This document shows, in pieces, positions 14,982 through 56,422 of a DNA stretch of 64,000 nt (within the stretch, counting starts at the first letter, position 1; each line of letters begins with the position of its first letter). Below the pieces are notes generated by a model. It searched no databases. It saw only the letters and a program-made list of their open reading frames with translations, and had not been told where the DNA came from. Origin of the DNA: Parcubacteria group bacterium GW2011_GWA2_42_14 (GTDB taxonomy: Bacteria > Patescibacteriota > Minisyncoccia > Sungbacterales > GWA2-42-14). A program made the translations under genes and the position numbers. The stretch is taken from contig LCCV01000001.1 in the NCBI GenBank assembly GCA_000998135.1, positions 8,958 through 72,957 on the forward strand. The letters are read 5' to 3'.

Positions 14982-15080
14982 TAAATTCTTTGAACCTGCT
15001 TCCTTATTCATGTTCTTGACAAATAATTTATATAATATATAATTAGAATTGCAAAAGTCCTTTTAAAAACGGGTCTGATA

Positions 15081-15389
15081 ATGCGCAAAATGCTCTACCA
15101 ACTCGCCTCCTTTGCTGTTTTATACTATATCATTGCCCTTGCCGTCGGTACTACCCTATTCTTTGTGCTGGGATGGAAGAGCCTTCTATTCTTATGGCTT
15201 GGTTCGGCATCAGTAAACATCTTCATTATGTGGCTTGTCGACAAAAAAAGACAACGCAATAACCTTCCTCCCCAATGGTTTCTTGATGACCCAAGCGGCG
15301 CCACAATATCTTCTTGTTTAGCAGGACTGTTAGTGCTCCCTTTTACTATTGCCGCCCTATTTGAACGAACTGGACAAATCAATAAATAA
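15081..15389 (+). CDS. Small membrane protein, hypothetical.
   Basis: A 102-aa ORF with three TM segments, followed by a strong terminator. Confidence 0.4.
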   Translation: MRKMLYQLASFAVLYYIIALAVGTTLFFVLGWKSLLFLWLGSASVNIFIMWLVDKKRQRNNLPPQWFLDDPSGATISSCLAGLLVLPFTIAALFERTGQINK

Positions 15390-15427
15390 AAGTATAAAAA
15401 ATAAATTTGCCAAAATATTTTTCAGCG

Positions 15428-15462
15428 GCCGTGCGCCGCTTTTTTCTTTTTAACAAAACTTA
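15428..15462 (+). terminator. Rho-independent terminator.
   Basis: Stem gcggc-cgtgc-gccgc followed by ttttttcttttt. Confidence 0.65.
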
Positions 15463-15859
15463 CCTCAAGCAAATAATGCCACAAAATTTTTCATTGTGGT
15501 ATTTCAAAATAAGATAAACCCGTCATCACGTCCCACCCCCCTCTCTTTTATATTCAAGCGGCCCTGATTTTATTAAGAAAACCATCTCGCAGGCCGAGCG
15601 GGGTCGTGAAGCGACGGGTTGTTCGGAGGACAACCCCGGGCTTTTGCGAGAAGCAAAAGTGGTTCCCGCTATTCAATTAAAATAAATAAAGAGCGGGAGA
15701 GCGAGGGCGAAAAAGTAATGTTATTACTTTTTCGCGGGCATTGCGAGCAGTCAGACCGCAGTCGGACAGCACAGCAGGATGCCCGGGAACGAGAGTGAGC
15801 GCAATTTCCACGCTGGGGAAATTGATAGCGTGTTTTCGTATAAAATCAGGACCACTTCA

Positions 15860-17872
15860 TCACTCCACCACGCTCCAATCCTTGTTCACCGTCTGCAAAT
15901 CTTCTTTCAATTCAGTGGTTACATCATCGGCGATACTTTCAAGGGCGGTTTTAGTAAAAGAATCCACGCCGGCAATTCTTATATTCTTAACCAACAGGGC
16001 GCGGTTGTTCACCGCGTTTTCACCCGGAGTAATGGCGACATTGAAAGCCAAAAACATTCTGGGCCTGACAACGCCGGTTCCGGCAAAAACATCTCCCGCA
16101 TCCCAAATAAGTTCTCCCGAAGACGGATTAAAACTTAATTTTTCTTTTTTATCGCCCGTTATCTGGTCCAGCCACCTTACGTTCCCCGGCAAAGAAGCGT
16201 ATAATTTTACGCCCTTGGCATCACTAGACAGATTGGAAATTTGAAAAACAACAGTATAGCCGGTTTCTCTGCCGACGGCAGGAGGTAGCGTTCCGATATT
16301 TGGACCCAGAGGAGAATTATAAAATACGGCCTTGGACAAAACAGACAATTGCGTTTTTAATTTAATCTCCAGTAAATTTTCGTATTCAAGCTTAATCCCT
16401 TCAAATCCTTCAGGCGCGGTTTTAGTGATGATTTTTGCCAAAGACGATATGACAAAATCTTTATCAAAAAAACTTGTTATTGACGGTTGTTTCTTAACAA
16501 CTGCGGAAAACGTCACATAACCGTTTTCACCAGGATCCAATTCTTTTAATTCCGGAAAAGAGGATGCGTTCCAAACAAGCTCGCGCGATGCCCCGTCAAA
16601 AAAACCTTTTTCAATTTTCAAATCCCTTAAGTCCATGAGCCCCTCGGAAAGGCGCACTCTTATAAAAACGTCTCTCACCGCCACAGGAAGATTGTTTTTG
16701 TAATAAACAGAAAAGTTTAAGGGCTCCCCAAACCTGGCGGCATAATTTTCGGCCCTGTTTACGTCCTGCCTGACAAAAAGAGGAGGAGATGCTAGATGAA
16801 TTTCTCCCACCTTATCAACAAATGTTTTGAATTGCCTTGTCTGGGGATTATATTCTCCGATGCTGGTAATGAATAATTTGACTTCTTCAGGAAAACCGAT
16901 AATTCTGGAGTTAATCGTAATGCGGCGGCTTTCACCCCGGAGCAAATCGCCCAATTTCCAAATACTATTTTCATAATCAGGTTTCTTATTAGAAGATAAA
17001 AATTCCAAACCGGTAGGCCAGTCCACCCTCATATACAAATTATTAAAGTCCACCTTGGAACTTGATGTAACCTCAACCACTATTTTTATGTCTTGTCCGC
17101 TGATAACTTTTTCAGGAATATCATAAAACACCGCAATCGGCACCAAAGAAATCACCATGGAAAAACTTGCCTGTTTTTGAAAACGCGAGGAAATATTTTC
17201 CGGCTGATACAAAAACAGGACCTCCGCTGTTTTTTCTTCGCCTGTATTTCCGAAAATCCGCGCCGTAAAATCAAACTCCCTTTCTTCACCGGGTTTCATT
17301 TCTTCAACCCTTATTTTGCTTCTTAAATTTTTTGAAACGTTTTCGCCGTCAACGGGTACTGCTCCCTTGGGATAGATAAAATTAAGTTCGGAGTTTTTAA
17401 CAGCTACACCAAGATTATTGCGTATAGTTACCGTCCATGTTTGGGTATCACCGGCTTCAACCGCGGCCTCACCCGATATTTCAAGCGTTACCGCGCCTCC
17501 TTTTTGAAAAACTCCGTAATAGACAAAACCCGCCGCGGCAACCACGGACACAAAAAAAACAATTGACGTAAAAATAAAAATTTTTGATTTATAAAAAGAT
17601 TTTTTGGTTTTTGGCATATTGGTAGTTGTTAAAACCGGCTCTTCTCCACCACCCGCTATCCTACGCATTTCTTCGGGTGAAGAAGGCCTAAAAGATCCAA
17701 TTTCATGACGCCCGGCCCCGTCCTCCGCCGAATCAACCACCCTATCTTCCCCATACGTTCTATCGCTATCCGTTTTTTTTCTCTGTACCTCATAGAGTTC
17801 TTTCTGTTTTCGTTCTTTGGGCCCTTTTCTGGAATAAATTTTTTCCTTTAGTTCTTCGAGTTTATCAGACAT
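15860..17872 (-). CDS. Large membrane-anchored, probably extracellular, protein of unknown function.
   Basis: A 670-aa ORF with a charged N-terminus, a single TM (IFIFTSIVFFVSVVAAAGFVYYGVF) and a long beta-rich ectodomain. Confidence 0.5.
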   Translation of the reverse strand: MSDKLEELKEKIYSRKGPKERKQKELYEVQRKKTDSDRTYGEDRVVDSAEDGAGRHEIGSFRPSSPEEMRRIAGGGEEPVLTTTNMPKTKKSFYKSKIFIFTSIVFFVSVVAAAGFVYYGVFQKGGAVTLEISGEAAVEAGDTQTWTVTIRNNLGVAVKNSELNFIYPKGAVPVDGENVSKNLRSKIRVEEMKPGEEREFDFTARIFGNTGEEKTAEVLFLYQPENISSRFQKQASFSMVISLVPIAVFYDIPEKVISGQDIKIVVEVTSSSKVDFNNLYMRVDWPTGLEFLSSNKKPDYENSIWKLGDLLRGESRRITINSRIIGFPEEVKLFITSIGEYNPQTRQFKTFVDKVGEIHLASPPLFVRQDVNRAENYAARFGEPLNFSVYYKNNLPVAVRDVFIRVRLSEGLMDLRDLKIEKGFFDGASRELVWNASSFPELKELDPGENGYVTFSAVVKKQPSITSFFDKDFVISSLAKIITKTAPEGFEGIKLEYENLLEIKLKTQLSVLSKAVFYNSPLGPNIGTLPPAVGRETGYTVVFQISNLSSDAKGVKLYASLPGNVRWLDQITGDKKEKLSFNPSSGELIWDAGDVFAGTGVVRPRMFLAFNVAITPGENAVNNRALLVKNIRIAGVDSFTKTALESIADDVTTELKEDLQTVNKDWSVVE

Positions 17873-27159: not shown

Positions 27160-27205
27160 CCCCCGAAATTATTTAATCGCGATTAAATAATTTCGGGGGG
27201 TGACA
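27160..27205. repeat. Perfect 21-bp-arm palindrome whose right arm is the 5' acceptor strand of the tmRNA.
   Basis: Sequence caccccccgaaattatttaatcgc|gattaaataatttcggggggtg. Confidence 0.7.
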
Positions 27206-27653
27206 GGCTTCGACAGGTCATTGAAAGCATTAAAAATCGGGTGGAAGACGTGGAGTAACTTCCTAAAATAATCTTCACAAAAATAAGTGCAAACTTATTG
27301 TCACGAGCAAAAGCAGTTTTTGCGTCAATTTTTGACACAACCGACTCATTTGCTCCAGCTTTTGCCTAACGGTAAAAGCGACTTGTTGCGATAGTAATAT
27401 CGCAACCATCGTCATAACTGGCGCTTGACCGGTTATCAAACGGTGTCATATACTCAAGCTTAATCGATTGATTTTTTCGGGATTAGTCGATGACAAATTT
27501 TCCGAAAGGGATTATGAGTGTTTTGCCTAATTCATAATTCATAATTCCCTGCCCCGAGTTAAATCGAGGGGTTAAACAATAATTCGGCTATCGCCCGTAC
27601 AAATTTTTGATGTAATATGCATCTGGACATGGGTTCGATTCCCATCACTTCCA
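27195..27653 (+). ncRNA. ssrA: tmRNA (ssrA).
   Basis: The 5' end GGGGGUGACAGGCUUCGACAGG matches the tmRNA consensus. The 3' end has a T-arm (auggg-UUCGAUU-cccau) followed by an acceptor strand CACUUCC and a discriminator A, then the sequence continues UCG, so no CCA is encoded. The acceptor stem pairs with a G3.U70 wobble, the Ala identity element. A resume-codon context AAAUAAGUGCAAAC resembles E. coli AAUAGUCGCAAAC. The gene lies immediately downstream of smpB. Confidence 0.8.
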
Positions 27654-27667
27654 TCGAATAAAAATAA

Positions 27668-37566: not shown

Positions 37567-37849
37567 ATGGCCGGGAATACCCGGCTTTTTTTATTCTCCT
37601 TCGCCGAATACCGACCGGCTTGGTTTACTCCGCCGAAGTAGCTTCGCCCGTCCTCCGTCCATCCTTCACAGCCGAAGCGGCTGCTTCGGCGGAGTAGGCC
37701 AGTAGCTCTGCTACGTAGGATGGAGCTACGAAGACTGGGCTGGTCGGAGCTTCATTTCGTCCGCAAGCAATTCGCTTCGCTAACGTGAAGTGAATCCGCG
37801 CCGCTTGTCGGGACTGGATACGAAAACGAAGTGAAAATTTTTTCCAAAA

Positions 37850-50695: not shown

Positions 50696-52534
50696 TTATT
50701 TCAAAAACTTCAGCATTTTTTCAAGAGACCATCCGTTGATAATATCCTTACGTTCCGCCCATCCTCTTCTGGCTTGCGCAATTCCAAACTCCAACATTTT
50801 AAAATGCTGAATTGAATGCGCATCAGAATCAATTGACATTTTTACTCCTGCCCTAACGCATTTTCTAATATATTCATCTTTTATATCGGCGCGATTAGGA
50901 TACGCGTTGACTTCCAAAATGGTTCCGGTACGTTTCGCGGCCGCGATAATTTCATCAATATCCAACTCAATCGGCTCGCGTTTATTGATAAGACGACCGG
51001 TAAGATGAAAAATAATATCAACATTCGTATTTTCCATGGCGCGGATAATGCGTTTGGTTTGTTCTTGGCGCGAAAGGTTAAAATGACTATGAACGGCCGC
51101 GCCAACAACATCCAATTTTGCCAAAACCTCGTCTTTGATGTCCAGCTCACCGTTTTTCCCAATATTTACTTCCGCTCCCTTTAATATTTTGAATTTGGAA
51201 TTTGGAATTTGTTTGGAATTTAGCTTGTCTATATATGCCATTTGTTTCAAAAGTTTCTTCTCGTCCGAACCGCCGGTCATGGCAAGGGAACGGGTATGGT
51301 CCGTAATCACAATATATTGAAGTCCGGCTTCCATAGCCGCTTTGGCCATTTCTTCAATAGAATTTTCTCCGTCGGTCCAATCGGTTTGAACTTGCATATC
51401 GCCTTTTAAATCGCCATATTTGATTAAATCCGGTAGCAAGGGCCCGACCCGTGCGCGACCAAGGTCGGACCTTGCATGTATAACGAGTTTACCCTGAGCA
51501 TGTCGAAGGGCCGCTTCAATTTCTCCTGTATTTTCACGCATTTCCGGCTCGATATAACTAAGTCCAAGGGCCTTATATAATTCTTCCTCGGTTTTTCCGG
51601 CAACCAATATCTCCGCTGAACCACGCAGACCGTTTCCGCGACTGTCTGCGTCCTGTCCGCGTGAGTCCGCGCTTCGAAAGAGACCATATTCATTAAGCTT
51701 CCACCCTTTCTTAATCGCAATTTGCCGCAAAGCGACATTATGGTCTTTTGAGCCGGTAAAATAATTAAGGGCCGCGCCGAATGATTCCTTTGGCACGACG
51801 CGCAAATCCGCATCAAGACCATTTTTTAATTTCACGGCTGTTTTGGTTTTGCCGTGCGCGTAAACATGGGCAATAAAAAGCAAACCCAGAAATCTCTCCA
51901 TTACTATTTCCGGCTTTGATGACGTAACCAAAATATCAATATCACCAATGGTTTCTTTGCTCCTCCTAACTGAACCGGCCACAACCGCCTTTTCAACTTC
52001 GGGAAACGACTGAATCATTTTTTCAAGCGTACGAATTTCCGGCAAAATAAATCCCAAAACAGCTCTTCCGCCGGATTTTTTCAAAAATTCAATTCCTTTT
52101 AAAATTTTTTGCTCTGATTTATCTCCAAAGTGTTCAAGTTTCCGGATTTTCCCGGCTTTAGCCGCTTTTTCCAAATCCGCCAAGTTGCGAATTCTTAATT
52201 TCTGCCATAGTGTTTTTACCATTCTGGGCCCAACGCCTTCCACCGCAGTCAATTCAGAAATATTCACCGGAATTTTTTTCTTCAATTTTTCATATTCGTC
52301 AAAATTTCCTTTTTCCAAAAGCTGTTTGATATGAAAAGCAATTCCTTTTCCCACGCCGGGAATTTCCAAAAGAGCTTTTTCTCCTCCTTCTTTATAAATT
52401 TCTTTTACTTCTTGAGCAAGCGATTCAACACCCAATGCCGCCTTCTCATAAGCGCGCGGTTTAAATAAAACTCCTTCCATTTCGTACAATACAGCCATCT
52501 CATTTAATATTTTAGCAATCTCACTATTGGTCAT
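50696..52534 (-). CDS. Family X DNA polymerase with a C-terminal PHP domain (PolX).
   Basis: N-terminal HhH motifs (LLEIPGVGKGIA, LTAVEGVGPRMVKTLW), the palm motif GSVRRSKETIGDIDILV, and a C-terminal PHP region (HARSDLGRA, ITDHTRS, HSHFNLS...DSDAHS). Confidence 0.85.
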   Translation of the reverse strand: MTNSEIAKILNEMAVLYEMEGVLFKPRAYEKAALGVESLAQEVKEIYKEGGEKALLEIPGVGKGIAFHIKQLLEKGNFDEYEKLKKKIPVNISELTAVEGVGPRMVKTLWQKLRIRNLADLEKAAKAGKIRKLEHFGDKSEQKILKGIEFLKKSGGRAVLGFILPEIRTLEKMIQSFPEVEKAVVAGSVRRSKETIGDIDILVTSSKPEIVMERFLGLLFIAHVYAHGKTKTAVKLKNGLDADLRVVPKESFGAALNYFTGSKDHNVALRQIAIKKGWKLNEYGLFRSADSRGQDADSRGNGLRGSAEILVAGKTEEELYKALGLSYIEPEMRENTGEIEAALRHAQGKLVIHARSDLGRARVGPLLPDLIKYGDLKGDMQVQTDWTDGENSIEEMAKAAMEAGLQYIVITDHTRSLAMTGGSDEKKLLKQMAYIDKLNSKQIPNSKFKILKGAEVNIGKNGELDIKDEVLAKLDVVGAAVHSHFNLSRQEQTKRIIRAMENTNVDIIFHLTGRLINKREPIELDIDEIIAAAKRTGTILEVNAYPNRADIKDEYIRKCVRAGVKMSIDSDAHSIQHFKMLEFGIAQARRGWAERKDIINGWSLEKMLKFLK

Positions 52535-52736
52535 ATGAATTTAGAAGCGAATAGACGCAGATACGTTGTTAGCTGGGAGCTGACAACGCAGATATACGCG
52601 GATACCCTTTACTGTTCGAGTGAAATCGGGAACGTTACAATAACGTAGCTTCTCGACCCGGCTCGAAGAATAAAATTAATATCAAAGCTTTTTATTTCTT
52701 CATTACTATCGTACCAAAAAGAAAAAGGGCCGCCTA

Positions 52737-52764
52737 TTGACAAATTCTGTGGATTTGGTATAAT
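52737..52764 (+). promoter_or_regulatory. Consensus sigma70 promoter pointing into the non-coding GC-rich region.
   Basis: TTGACA at 52737-42, a 16-nt spacer, TATAAT at 52759-64, predicting a transcription start near 52771. Confidence 0.6.
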
Positions 52765-52770
52765 TAAAGT

Positions 52771-54337
52771 AATCTAGAATGGTGCTGGGAAGCACTAAAA
52801 CGCTGGAGGGGATCGAGGCCCGTATGGGCTTCGGCAAGGGAAAAAAACCCGGCAATTGCGTCAGGAAGAAACATTACCCTTGTGAGGGCGGATAGTGGCG
52901 GATTCCCCGGCAGAAATGCCGCAGAAACCACAATTCCAACATCCTATTTTTGCCTCCCATTTTTCTTGACAAAAAATCCTGTATAGACTACATATTAAAG
53001 TCCAACCTTAAAAACATAAAAAACAGGCCGTTTGGCGAAAAAAGCCCATAATTCCTACATTAAGCAACACTCAGTGTTGCTAAGGGGTGTCGGCTGGCCA
53101 AAGACGCCGCTCCCACAAAAGAAGTATTTTTATCGTCAAAAAAAGCTCGTAATAATACCCTGAAGATCTAGGATTGAAGCATTCACAAATTCATATTTGT
53201 TAGAGAATAGCAGAAATTTACGGGTTTTTTCCGCCGATAAAAGGCGAAAAGTTTACCGCAGTTCAAAATACACCGACGGGTGTAGGGTGCTCGGAATGCC
53301 CGTGGCATCCCTGCGGTTCTGCTTAGCAGCCAAACCGGCTGCAAACAAAAACTTGGGCTAGGCGGGAAGGTCGCACCAGGAACACAAGCGTAAAGGTACC
53401 AGCCCGCCGAAAGGATCGGAAGTAGGTCTGCCCAAGCGGGGCCGGGAGATATTAGGACAGAAATAAAGTCAAAAATCTCCCGGCTCCACCCTTTTTTTAA
53501 AAATTAAAAATAAAAAATCGGCTGTTGATTAATGGATAACTCGTTACATGTTTCATGTCACATGTTTCAGGAAAATCTATTAATCAGCCGCCGATACCAG
53601 CCCTAACTCCACTAAAGCGCAATGCGCTGGAAGGACTGGTCAAAACGGTGGCTCAAAATACAATACTGCGGCTGTTGCTTGACTGCGCGCGAAAGCGAAG
53701 CAGAAAGGCGATAGAAGAGGTAGCCCCTCTTACCGGCCGGCCTTGGATTATTGGCCGGTTCCGCAAAAAAATCGCAAACTGGGCCTTGAGTTTCGCGGCG
53801 AAATTTAACGCGAAGTACGAGGGGACGCTCCTCACTCGCCGCGCAACTGACAAACGGACCCCAACAAGAAGGGTTCGGGCCAAACTACAAACAGCTTCTT
53901 GGTGGGAATGTGGAGCGTCCTGTACAGGTGTTCGCAAACGAACAAACCGCCTGAAAAGACCGGTCCTGTACACCCAGCAACCCTCCACCAAGAACCATCT
54001 TCGGCGCCGCTTACCGCGGACGCCGAAGGACTCGCCAACCAAGGCGGGTCATTTCAACCCCTCGACGCCAGACCGAGACCGAGAAGGCTTATAAAATCGG
54101 CGTCGAGCATCGCCGTACCCGGAAAACGGGAAGCGGCAGCGCAGGGACGAATCCGCAAGGGTACGGAGCACACACCAGCACCAGCCGCTCCACCCAATTC
54201 GGGCCCGCGCAACCAACCCGCCCGACCGATTACAAATCAGTTTAGGGCGGGTCCCAAAAAAAACCGTCCCTCCCGCTTGCGGGAGGGACGACAAAATAAT
54301 TCAAGAAGCCTTGTCTCGCGACAAGGCCTGTTTTTTA
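52771..54337 (+). ncRNA. Candidate large structured non-coding RNA of about 1.57 kb, or two RNAs split near 53500. I could not assign it to any known family.
   Basis: No credible ORF; only overlapping spurious ORFs on both strands, as expected for GC-rich sequence. GC content is far above the genomic background. A consensus promoter lies upstream and a strong intrinsic terminator downstream. There are many nested GC helices with GNRA/tetraloop caps: gtgct-GGGA-agcac, cggca-GAAA-tgccg, gcaacac-tca-gtgttgc, gcagcc-aaac-cggctgc, cttcggcg...cgccgaag, ctcgacgcc...ggcgtcgag, gtaccc...gggtac, and ccgtccctcccgc-ttg-cgggagggacg. Confidence 0.5.
54303..54337 (+). terminator. Strong rho-independent terminator.
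   Basis: Stem gccttgtc-tcgcg-acaaggc followed by ctgttttttattt. Confidence 0.7.
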
Positions 54338-54358
54338 TTTATTTGTTTCAATATGAGG

Positions 54359-55021
54359 TTAAATCTGCTTTTGGCCGTAAAATTGGGCAAGGTCATGCGG
54401 AACTTTTGGTTTAATATAAGGCCTCAAAAAAATAAGTATTATTAATCCGATAAGGCTGAAAGTTCCGCTGACAAAAAAAATCGGGCGAATCCCGACAATG
54501 GCCGCAAGAATTCCGGAAAACAAACTTCCCAAAGCAGTTCCTGCTCCAATGGAAAAACTTGACCAAAGCGACCATTCAAATGCTTCCTTGTCTTTATCCA
54601 AATGGCGTGAAAACATTCCAAAAAAAGGCGGAACATACAGCGCGTACCCGACCGCTAACAAAATTTGAAGAAAATAAATTTGCCAGACCGAGCCGACAAA
54701 ATAATACATAAATTGCACAACCATAATAACGGCAAGGCCTATAAGCATTGAATAATAATCATCAATTTCTCCGTGGTTTTTATCAAGCTGGCGGGCAACC
54801 GGCAGCTGCACTATTGATTTTACCGCCCAAAAAATTGCCACGGCAATTCCCACGACGGTTACCGGCGCCAAAATATCATTCACGATAAACAGCGCAAAGA
54901 GAGGCGTAATGAAAGCCGTTGAAGCCCCAATGACAAATTCGGCAAAAATAATAATCAAAATAACCTGATTTATTTGGGGAAATGAAAATTTTGGAAAATT
55001 TACGTTAAATATAAATTTCAT
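54359..55021 (-). CDS. Membrane transporter-like protein (MFS-type half); the N-terminus of the tracked ORF comes from a repeat.
   Basis: Six TM helices. The start is placed at MKFIFNV because upstream codons fall in repeat family D. Confidence 0.4.
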   Translation of the reverse strand: MKFIFNVNFPKFSFPQINQVILIIIFAEFVIGASTAFITPLFALFIVNDILAPVTVVGIAVAIFWAVKSIVQLPVARQLDKNHGEIDDYYSMLIGLAVIMVVQFMYYFVGSVWQIYFLQILLAVGYALYVPPFFGMFSRHLDKDKEAFEWSLWSSFSIGAGTALGSLFSGILAAIVGIRPIFFVSGTFSLIGLIILIFLRPYIKPKVPHDLAQFYGQKQI

Positions 55022-55246
55022 GTTTTTATTGAAACTATCAAATAATTTATTGCCCGAGCCTGTCGAAGGCATACCTTAAGAATCTATAGAATAATGTAAC
55101 CCTTCGACTTCGCTCGGCTTCGCTCAGGGAATAATTCAACACTCTTATTTATTATAGCAAAAAATCAAAAGCCCCGCTATAAGCGGAGCTTTTGGCTTAA
55201 AAATATCTGTGTTAATCCGCGTTATTATCAGTGTTTATCCGCGTTT

Positions 55247-56422
55247 CTATTGAACAGCGAGATTCGCCCTTACTCTTCCCCAGCCGTAATCATTGTCTTT
55301 TCCTGACTTTCCCAAATCCTTGGCCGTAGAAAGCAAAGCATTTTGCACTTGAGCTACTGTCAAAGTCGGATGTGCGGATTTAACTAAGGCCACAGTTCCC
55401 GAAACAACTGGTGTAGCCATGCTTGTTCCGCTCCAAGAAGCATAGCTTGAACCGAGTGTTGAAGAATAAATGGTAACTCCCGGCGCGGAAATATCAACCG
55501 CACTCCCCCTTCCAGAAAAACTGGCGACCTTATCAAAGTCATTAACAGCGCCAACCGTAGTTGAATAACTTATACATCCTGGAATGGAAACTCCTGCCCT
55601 GCCGCTGTTTCCGGCAGCCACCACAACCAAAACTCCGTGGTCAACGGCATATTTAATCGCCGCAGTTAAAGAAGGCAGTACACTATCACAAAATCCTTTA
55701 TAAACATAGGGCTTTCCTGTTCCAAGACTCAAACTAATGGCATCAACAACAACATCATCGCTAGTACCTGCCAAACCATCTGCTCCTTTAGTAGCCACAT
55801 CAACCGCCCAATAAATCGCTTCTTCCACATCGCTGAAATATCCCGAACCGGCGGCATCAAGAACTTTTCCGGCAATTACTCCTGCATCGGGCGCTACGCC
55901 CTTGGCAGTTGCATTTACCCCATCAGCAGTAATAATTCCCGCAACATGACTGCCGTGCCCATTATCGTCTGCCGGGTCATCATCATTATTTACAAAATCT
56001 TTTCCTCCGAGGTAGCTTGAAGAAAGTTCCGGATGACCGTAGTTATAACCGGTATCCAAAACAACAACTTTTCTACCGCTACCCGTGTTTCCATTGGTTT
56101 GAACCGCATTGGCTCCAATCTGGGCATTGGCCGTAGAATCCTGCGCAAAAACCCTTATATCTTCCTGAAGTCCAAGTTGTGTTCCTATATTAGGGTCGCA
56201 ACTTAACACGGTAAGCGCCTTTCCGCTTTCTTTAACTTTCTTACATCCCATAGCAATTCCTTGAGCTGCCCGTTCCGGAAGTTCTGTTACAAAGCGCGCT
56301 TTTGGGCCTTTATCCGGCGAAGCAAGAGTTATTTGATACAGACCCCATAGCAAAAGGGCTCCTATTAATACAAAAATAAATGAATAAAATAATGCTTTTT
56401 GCTTATTGAGCGTATTTATCAT
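55247..56422 (-). CDS. Secreted subtilisin-like serine protease (S8).
   Basis: Signal peptide, then the catalytic triad motifs VVVLDTGY (Asp), HGSHVAGI (His) and GTSMATPVVSG (Ser). Confidence 0.9.
   Translation of the reverse strand: MINTLNKQKALFYSFIFVLIGALLLWGLYQITLASPDKGPKARFVTELPERAAQGIAMGCKKVKESGKALTVLSCDPNIGTQLGLQEDIRVFAQDSTANAQIGANAVQTNGNTGSGRKVVVLDTGYNYGHPELSSSYLGGKDFVNNDDDPADDNGHGSHVAGIITADGVNATAKGVAPDAGVIAGKVLDAAGSGYFSDVEEAIYWAVDVATKGADGLAGTSDDVVVDAISLSLGTGKPYVYKGFCDSVLPSLTAAIKYAVDHGVLVVVAAGNSGRAGVSIPGCISYSTTVGAVNDFDKVASFSGRGSAVDISAPGVTIYSSTLGSSYASWSGTSMATPVVSGTVALVKSAHPTLTVAQVQNALLSTAKDLGKSGKDNDYGWGRVRANLAVQ

Follow-up and report, generated by a model that had tools for sequence, protein, structure and literature searches.

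A candidate large, fast-evolving structured RNA between PolX and an MFS-type gene in Sungbacteria

In a 64,000-nt stretch of Parcubacteria group bacterium GW2011_GWA2_42_14 (contig LCCV01000001.1; hereafter the window, whose numbering is used throughout), the region between the genes for PolX and a small MFS-type membrane protein appears to encode a new, very large, fast-evolving and functional structured non-coding RNA, a reading to which we give a probability of roughly 0.6. The element lies on the plus strand and reaches from a consensus promoter at 52737-52764 to an intrinsic terminator at 54308-54337. The metagenome-assembled genomes that carry it come from the Rifle aquifer, and the identical sequence is also present in Candidatus Sungbacteria bacterium RIFCSPLOWO2_12_FULL_41_11 (contig MHQY01000013.1). 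An earlier reading of the letters alone (the sequence-only reading) had proposed a large structured RNA at this place, and its claims are taken up below where results bear on them.

Comparative evidence comes from a third lineage (lineage C, contigs L106-L115), whose MFS gene has diverged by 12% as a whole and by 27% at third codon positions, and which carries a truly diverged allele of the element. L114 supplies 564 nt of this allele, with homologous blocks 75-80% identical to 53993-54220. Folded independently, it forms the same helices H1-H5 (z = -7.4 for the RNA-sense strand, -5.1 for its complement; folding z-scores here and below are relative to dinucleotide shuffles). Pairs were counted in alignments guided by covariance models (CMs) built from the window's minimum-free-energy (MFE) structure, because MAFFT had put three 1-nt indels of H4 in the wrong place in its blocks A1 and A2. 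Model R1 (54056-54220), which holds helices H3 (54061-54069/54099-54107), H4 (54112-54137) and H5 (54159-54195) together with the helices that enclose them, detects L114 with 67 bits (E = 8e-18) and 97.9% of cells paired. Five pairs are changed on both sides in this alignment, of which H3 contributes one and inner H4 and H5 two each; shuffles give 1.0 ± 0.9 such pairs (0/500 reach five), and six slid controls give none. Model R2 (53993-54055), with H1 (53999-54028) and H2 (54029-54050), detects L114 with 40.7 bits (E = 4e-10) and contains three compensatory pairs, the slid controls again giving none. When the terminator hairpin of five alleles was aligned with MAFFT, three of its pairs covaried, against at most one in slid controls, and the plus-strand T-run did not vary. 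Across these three alignments, 88-98% of cells are paired. A nested hairpin at 54216-54252, H7/H6 (ACCCGCCC[ACCGATT-ACA-AATCAGT]GGGCGGGT), has a homologous counterpart in L109, and its pair 54225:54241 occurs as A-U, G·U and G-C over three alleles. The conservation of helices across homologues that the sequence-only reading anticipated is therefore borne out for the 3′ domain, by five and three compensatory pairs in L114 and by the covarying terminator.

Paired and unpaired positions evolve at different rates. In the alignment of 54056-54220 (A5), identity is 82% in paired columns and 58% in unpaired ones, the latter with many indels, against 73% for MFS third codon positions; the blocks 54127-54150 and 54197-54218 are invariant. 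L114 also has extra sequence, namely a 33-nt helix within the H1 loop and an insert of ~155 nt with a flanking GTTTCA..CCTC direct repeat. Its hairpins near the 3′ end differ from those of the window, and each lineage-C allele has its own long perfect hairpin beside the terminator. As judged from the aligned alleles, selection acts on helices through compensatory changes between lineages, loops and linkers change at about or above the neutral rate, and evolution adds or removes entire helices as modules.

Watson-Crick helices are strand-symmetric, and for this reason the strand test counted single non-Watson-Crick positions within 3+3 flanking Watson-Crick pairs. The plus strand has 13 G·U against 5 A·C, where shuffles have 3.0 against 5.2 (binomial p = 0.002); this excess marks the plus strand as the functional one.

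Folding energies cover the whole element. On the plus strand z is -6.1 for 52771-53498 and -13.7 for 53499-54337, and on the minus strand the same segments give -8.0 and -8.7. In 200-nt windows over the region, plus-strand values run from -0.6 to -6.0 and are mostly below -2, with flanking genes at about 0, and the plus strand is more negative than the minus strand in most of these windows. Unpaired positions in the MFE structure comprise 69% of A and 16% of G. The predicted structure begins with a 5′ domain of ~730 nt (52771-53498, 40-55% GC, without codon periodicity), continues with a long imperfect hairpin at 53517-53595 (inverted repeat I3; 21-nt arms, 86% complementary, MFE pair probabilities ~1) and a central multi-helix domain at 53596-53992, predicted from MFE and centroid structures (sliding z -1.9 to -5.7), and ends with the helices of the 3′ domain described above. 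The long-stem hairpin had been placed near 53517-53590 beforehand, and most of the GC-rich local helices listed in the sequence-only reading were recovered with it. GNRA tetraloops, described there as caps, are only mildly enriched (2/12), too weakly for this enrichment to be kept as a strand test. An internal tandem duplication with a period of ~494 nt, hinted at by repeat spacings, was rejected as not above shuffles, and no complementarity of the RNA to the remainder of the window was found.

Signals for transcription bracket the element. The promoter at 52737-52764 is of the sigma70 type, TTGACA-N16-(TG)TATAAT, with a 12/12 match and an extended -10 TG, the two boxes and their spacing being as first described; it is one of two perfect TTGACA-N16-TATAAT sites in the window, against 0.03 expected, and its position puts the probable transcription start at ~52771. 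The other perfect site, at 15016-15043 on the plus strand, drives a 102-aa membrane open reading frame (ORF; 15081-15389) with a terminator near 15425-15450. At the 3′ end, the terminator scan found the hairpin GCCTTGTC-TCGC-GACAAGGC at 54308-54327 followed by CTGTTTTTT, that is, an 8-bp GC stem, a TCGC loop and T6 (54308-54337, plus strand), kept in five alleles; its presence and strand had been called correctly, but with a 5-nt loop and T7 in place of the actual 4-nt loop and T6. An internal terminator-like signal, also seen earlier, occupies 53438-53498 and consists of a hairpin at 53438-53487 (inverted repeat I13; 13-16-bp stem, ~18-nt loop) and T7, with the T-run on the plus strand only. 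Leaky termination here may give rise to a 0.73-kb species. The sequence-only reading had suggested that the locus may encode two RNAs of ~730 and ~800 nt; no second promoter scoring at least 10/12 was found downstream of the internal terminator. The T-runs after both hairpins belonging to the RNA unit thus lie on the plus strand. On the minus strand, a 12-13-bp GC hairpin followed by T8, found by the terminator scan at 54264-54291 within the 3′ end of the plus-strand RNA, probably terminates the MFS mRNA. In this hairpin, which is missing from the lineage-C alleles, the strain change 54266 G>A creates a G·U on the minus strand.

The region behaves as non-coding DNA. Codon periodicity is 3.3/kb (chi2, p = 0.53), compared with 34-104/kb for the neighbouring genes, and all six reading frames are open in the GC-rich part, as expected of non-coding GC-rich DNA. 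The sequence-only reading had found no credible ORF and had named ORF 53555-54094 (179 aa), annotated in GenBank as hypothetical protein KKS38984.1/OHA14136.1, as one that could overturn this view. Taken alone, this ORF has no periodicity (p = 0.47); searches of 5.8e9 clustered and 1.84e9 representative proteins gave no homolog for it; and a 1-nt deletion breaks its frame in strain L004. The L114 allele differs from the window by 1-nt and 2-nt, i.e., non-triplet, indels. For the other open frames, a six-frame Pfam scan and a concatenated six-frame protein search were both without any match, on which ground a pseudogene was rejected too. A 38-aa ORF (MVLGSTKTLEGIEARMGFGKGKKPGNCVRKKHYPCEGG) at 52779-52895 on the plus strand, called in a few assemblies only, begins ~8 nt past the presumed transcription start, has no Shine-Dalgarno sequence and no Pfam or family match, and shows a K>N variant in one strain. 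It is probably spurious, and the transcript may otherwise be a dual-function RNA that encodes it.

No known RNA family accounts for the element either, in agreement with what had been claimed. Rfam 15 was searched with cmscan using 4227 models, including GOLLD, ROOL, OLE, HEARO, raiA, RNase P, tmRNA, 6S, SRP and group I/II introns. At gathering score there was no match in the element, the sole match in the window being a tmRNA at 27196-27656; at E ≤ 10, the segment 52500-54500 returned weak terminator-like matches only (12-28 bits against thresholds of 38-90). As a calibration, the other GC-rich islands without codon periodicity in related loci are tRNA clusters. Of the refuting conditions set by the sequence-only reading, those examined (Rfam match, coding signature and loss of helix conservation) all turned out in favour of a novel structured RNA.

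PolX (50696-52534) and the MFS-type gene (54359-55072) both lie on the minus strand and enclose an intergenic non-coding stretch of ~1.8 kb (52535-54358); the plus-strand RNA unit therefore points away from PolX and towards MFS. The sequence-only reading had the strand of MFS right and erred in making PolX divergent from MFS, since only the RNA unit diverges from PolX. Its statement that GC content is far above the rest of the window holds for 53200-53500 (51-55%) and 53600-54300 (55-63%) and fails for 52900-53200, where 40-42% is ordinary for the window (mean 41%). The highest-GC 300-nt stretch of the whole window lies within the 3′ part of the element, and the plus strand of 53600-54300 is A- and C-rich and T-poor (14.7% T); other intergenic gaps of the genome have 28-45% GC. 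The segment 52535-52736, inside the 1.8-kb insertion described below and outside the RNA, holds the PolX leader and the PolX promoter region on the minus strand (local z ~-3.5), and a promoter scan of this segment found no minus-strand consensus promoter for PolX. At 52550-52700 the leader contains two minus-strand hairpins, GTTGTTAGC-TGGG-AGCTGACAAC between CGCAGATA repeats, and CTTCTCGA-CCCGG-CTCGAAG. A defence-island context was rejected, as PADLOC returned a generic subtilase match only.

In ~30 related Parcubacteria, MFS and PolX adjoin on one strand, with gaps that range from an overlap to ~150 nt. This adjacency implies that a 1.8-kb insertion split an ancestral operon. Among the three nearest relatives sampled, L100 and L102 (PolX 76-77% identical) have a gene abutting PolX and no insert, and the third, L101, has a 630-nt gap. 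The element is restricted to a narrow Sungbacteria clade of the Rifle aquifer. An nhmmer search with the region against 80 PolX loci (GTDB species), the three nearest relatives and the window found no homolog or second copy; CM R1 recovered only an identical allele from 93 loci (1.3 Mb); blastn against phage and plasmid collections and three IMG/VR pattern scans had no match; and a 22-mer scan of metagenomes returned a chance match in the high-GC contig L103 only, in a collection that apparently lacks the Joint Genome Institute contigs carrying the element. The element has no internal repeat family, and neither the window nor the 1.3 Mb of related loci contains a second copy of its hairpins.

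Lineage-specific material has been inserted repeatedly between MFS and PolX, which makes this junction an insertion hot spot. Opposite-strand protein genes (Cys-rich, ~225 aa, or lipoprotein-like, ~240 aa) occupy it in L027/L030 and L050/L052/L053; they are unrelated to the window sequence by tblastn, and the element was accordingly rejected as a decayed copy of them. Non-coding units antisense to PolX are found in L101 (~520 nt), L024 (~270 nt), L031 (~230 nt), L033 (~200 nt) and L034 (~70 nt). Every unit is delimited by a promoter and a terminator, and the promoters score 11-12/12 and lie 70-200 nt away from where PolX begins; promoter spacers are alike in the window, L101, L024 and L031. 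The L101 unit, at 1910-2470 on the minus strand, has 70% GC, z = -6.3 and no Rfam match. The transcribed parts of these units have no significant similarity to one another or to the window RNA: homology of the latter to the L101, L024, L031 and L033 units was not supported (Smith-Waterman z ≤ 2.4), and a 12-mer common to the window and L024 was not significant. Orthology of the units upstream of PolX with the window RNA is possible, though unproven.

Alleles of the element move between lineages. L104, L105 and L018 belong to a lineage whose MFS and PolX are 10-23% diverged at the DNA level, yet they have at most one difference over 52116-54418, and the breakpoints of the identical segment are common to independent assemblies. 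A near-identical element in a diverged lineage, with shared breakpoints, means that the allele was recently exchanged by homologous recombination. L018, L104, L105 and L009 are mosaics, in which PolX, MFS and S8 protease patches (window 51770-52115, 54419-55009 and 55607-55897) are 10-23% diverged and 2.3 kb around the RNA are identical; they point to frequent homologous recombination among co-existing lineages. The lineage-C contigs all stop 32-564 nt past MFS. In L112 (3051-3102, after window 54195), the RNA switches to a high-GC sequence encoding ...VGHSMGGAVAMRLAANFPE on the other strand, an alpha/beta-hydrolase nucleophile elbow, and this contig end is probably chimeric.

Several points weigh against a functional RNA. 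Comparative support is confined to 53993-54340, and the 5′ half and the centre (53596-53990) are argued for by folding energies alone; the 5′ 1.2 kb has no covariation support, and no diverged allele covers 52771-53498. The comparison is essentially with one diverged allele (the 564 nt of L114) plus short fragments, and model-guided alignments lean toward the structure modelled, here the one predicted from the window. Two one-sided changes in the terminator stem give C·A on the plus strand and favour the minus strand, a small discordance. Near-identical strains are ~20-fold more variable in the element than in its flanks: in L004, 14/20 events of 18 kb fall within the 1.8-kb element (p = 3e-10), L017 and L003 show the same pattern, and the strain changes are nearly all transitions, plus slippage indels. 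These variants do not clearly preserve pairs, with five kept and four broken on the plus strand and six kept and three broken on the minus strand, and they were set aside as an uninformative covariation test. An enriched loop motif that would point to a binding partner was not found. Finally, the distribution is extremely narrow, with no homolog in 1.3 Mb of related loci, in phages, in plasmids or in the IMG/VR scans.

Under the favoured reading of a functional structured RNA, transcription would begin at ~52771 from the promoter at 52737-52764, a leaky internal terminator at ~53498 may release a 0.73-kb 5′ species, and the full-length RNA of ~1.57 kb would end at the 54308-54337 terminator. 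It would fold into a chain of mostly local GC-rich helices linked by A-rich single strands, the helices being under selection and the single-stranded parts nearly free to vary. Its insertion split the ancestral MFS-PolX operon, and its alleles are swapped between lineages by homologous recombination. The product would most likely be an abundant structural RNA acting in trans; a role as a scaffold or a protein-binding RNA is the best guess, any specific role being held with much lower confidence than a functional structured RNA as such. A role as an mRNA or a cis-regulator is unlikely.

A more specific and quite improbable version holds that a giant structured RNA (~1.6 kb) is under diversifying or frequency-dependent selection in a genetic conflict or host interaction of an episymbiotic bacterium of the Candidate Phyla Radiation (CPR), for example as a decoy, an immunity RNA or an exported effector RNA. 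Its architecture would be conserved while loops and modules evolve faster than synonymous sites, successful alleles would sweep via homologous recombination, and the units found ahead of PolX in related species would be orthologs, diverged to an extreme degree, of a single old and ever-changing RNA gene.

The main rival to a functional RNA is that the element is a transcribed but functionless hairpin-rich spacer at a dumping-ground junction, which gathered terminator-like palindromes and others that protect 3′ ends, and whose hairpins are kept by selection for termination or insulation, or else by templated palindrome repair at the DNA level. We consider this unlikely, although it fits the hypervariability among strains, the unrelated protein genes and non-coding units inserted at the same junction elsewhere (L027/L030 and L050-53; L101, L024, L031 and L033), the divergence of loops at or above the neutral proxy, the large indels with flanking direct repeats, and the different long perfect hairpin next to the terminator in each lineage-C allele. 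A spacer would not be expected to keep 55-63% GC in a genome of 41% GC whose other intergenic gaps have 28-45%, nor would DNA palindromes produce an excess of G·U on the plus strand. Compensatory changes in internal, non-terminator helices and the invariance of the 20-24-nt blocks at 54127-54150 and 54197-54218 also speak against it, and a perfect consensus promoter would be costly in a genome of ~1 Mb if its product were useless.

Less probable still is a module that regulates or insulates PolX and MFS in cis, in which the strong divergent promoter and the convergent terminators work through promoter interference or supercoiling coupling with the PolX promoter and through the overlap with the 3′ end of the MFS mRNA, with the transcript body incidental. 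Six species have strong antisense promoters at 70-200 nt from PolX on its upstream side, four of them (window, L101, L024, L031) with similar spacers, and unrelated transcribed sequences of 70-1570 nt; this is what such a module would look like, and the 3′ end of the RNA overlaps that of MFS by ~70 nt. The module, however, leaves 1.5 kb of GC-rich, covarying helices far from both genes unexplained; the two terminators do not overlap in lineage C, and many relatives have a single MFS-PolX operon and no such promoter.

Foreign or mobile DNA, whether a decayed GC-rich donor gene, a prophage or insertion-sequence fragment, or a mobile palindrome cluster, is a very doubtful source. Insertion relative to the relatives, GC well above the genome, movement between lineages by recombination, and the L112 contig end that joins the element to high-GC hydrolase-like sequence are all compatible with it; the L112 junction, however, looks chimeric, the six frames are without protein similarity, phages, plasmids and IMG/VR are without a match, and there are no terminal inverted repeats, no internal repeat family, and no repeated copies in the window or 1.3 Mb of relatives. 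That ORF 53555-54094 or the 38-aa ORF specifies a real product is scarcely credible, since their annotation by gene callers and one in-frame 6-nt indel, itself a slippage of tandem AGACCG, stand against the absent periodicity and homologs, the frame-breaking indels of L004 and L114, and the missing Shine-Dalgarno sequence and family match already described.

Other non-coding features of the window were noted in passing. The tmRNA gene at 27196-27656 (plus strand, 117 bits in Rfam) is unusually long at 461 nt, and it was missed by ARAGORN, which listed neither tRNA nor tmRNA genes anywhere in the window. Downstream of the 102-aa membrane ORF, a hairpin-rich segment of ~400 nt at 15460-15860, without codon periodicity or Rfam match, may be another orphan structured RNA or a long 3′ untranslated region. 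At 37600-37830, between two terminators, lies a hairpin-rich non-coding gap of ~230 nt (53% GC), for which Rfam gave noise only at E ≤ 1.

If the favoured reading of a functional RNA is true, few structured RNAs of bacteria outside the ribosome would be longer, and this one would come from the CPR, where 1.6 kb of non-coding sequence behind a perfect promoter is expensive in a genome of ~1 Mb. It would also exemplify a mode of RNA evolution that family-based searches (Rfam, CMfinder) miss by design, in which helices are conserved while sequence turns over at a nearly neutral rate, helices are gained and lost as modules, and alleles are exchanged between lineages. Many orphan large RNAs may hide in metagenome-assembled genomes as hypothetical proteins, like KKS38984.1 and OHA14136.1. 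In divergent lineages the recovered contigs all end inside or just short of the element, and such assembly breaks may explain why loci of this kind go unnoticed.

Three kinds of known systems invite comparison. Like REP/BIME, BOX and Correia elements and the GC clusters of yeast mitochondrial DNA, the element consists of GC-rich intergenic palindromes that vary among strains and can stabilise or terminate transcripts. Unlike in those and other REP- or MITE-like families, each hairpin occurs once in the sequence searched, the window together with related loci of 1.3 Mb, and the G·U bias of the plus strand argues for constraint at the RNA level. Similarly, the sponge RNAs CsrB/RsmZ and CrcZ share with it many local hairpins with A-rich linkers, a strong promoter, an intrinsic terminator, rapid sequence turnover and a variable number of hairpin modules among relatives. 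However, the element is four times longer, has no repeated loop motif, and has helices that are individually conserved by covariation and not interchangeable. In the window allele, k-mer enrichment reached a maximum z of 2.9 for 4 nt and 3.2 for 5 nt; GGA is mostly paired (28% unpaired), A-rich motifs are not enriched, and CAAC and CAAAC are not enriched over shuffles. A sponge RNA of this type was rejected on this negative loop-motif enrichment.

The third comparison is with the large 'ornate' bacterial non-coding RNAs GOLLD, ROOL, OLE and raiA, whose functions are unknown or have only lately been glimpsed and which have been studied by cryo-electron microscopy (PMC12286853). The element belongs to this known kind, large structured bacterial non-coding RNAs of unknown function, and matches no known family. 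As in those RNAs, multiple helices form a GC-rich island in an AT-richer genome, a promoter and an intrinsic terminator of its own (here predicted) delimit the unit, helices are supported by covariation, and function cannot be deduced from context. It differs from them in giving no covariance-model match even at E ≤ 10, in a length of ~1.57 kb, roughly twice that of GOLLD, in being confined to one narrow Sungbacteria clade without phage context where the others are widespread, and in loops and linkers that change at the neutral rate and helices that come and go as modules. Relative to the large non-coding RNAs already known, its novelty would thus lie in its size, its narrow range, its rapid modular evolution and its spread by recombination.

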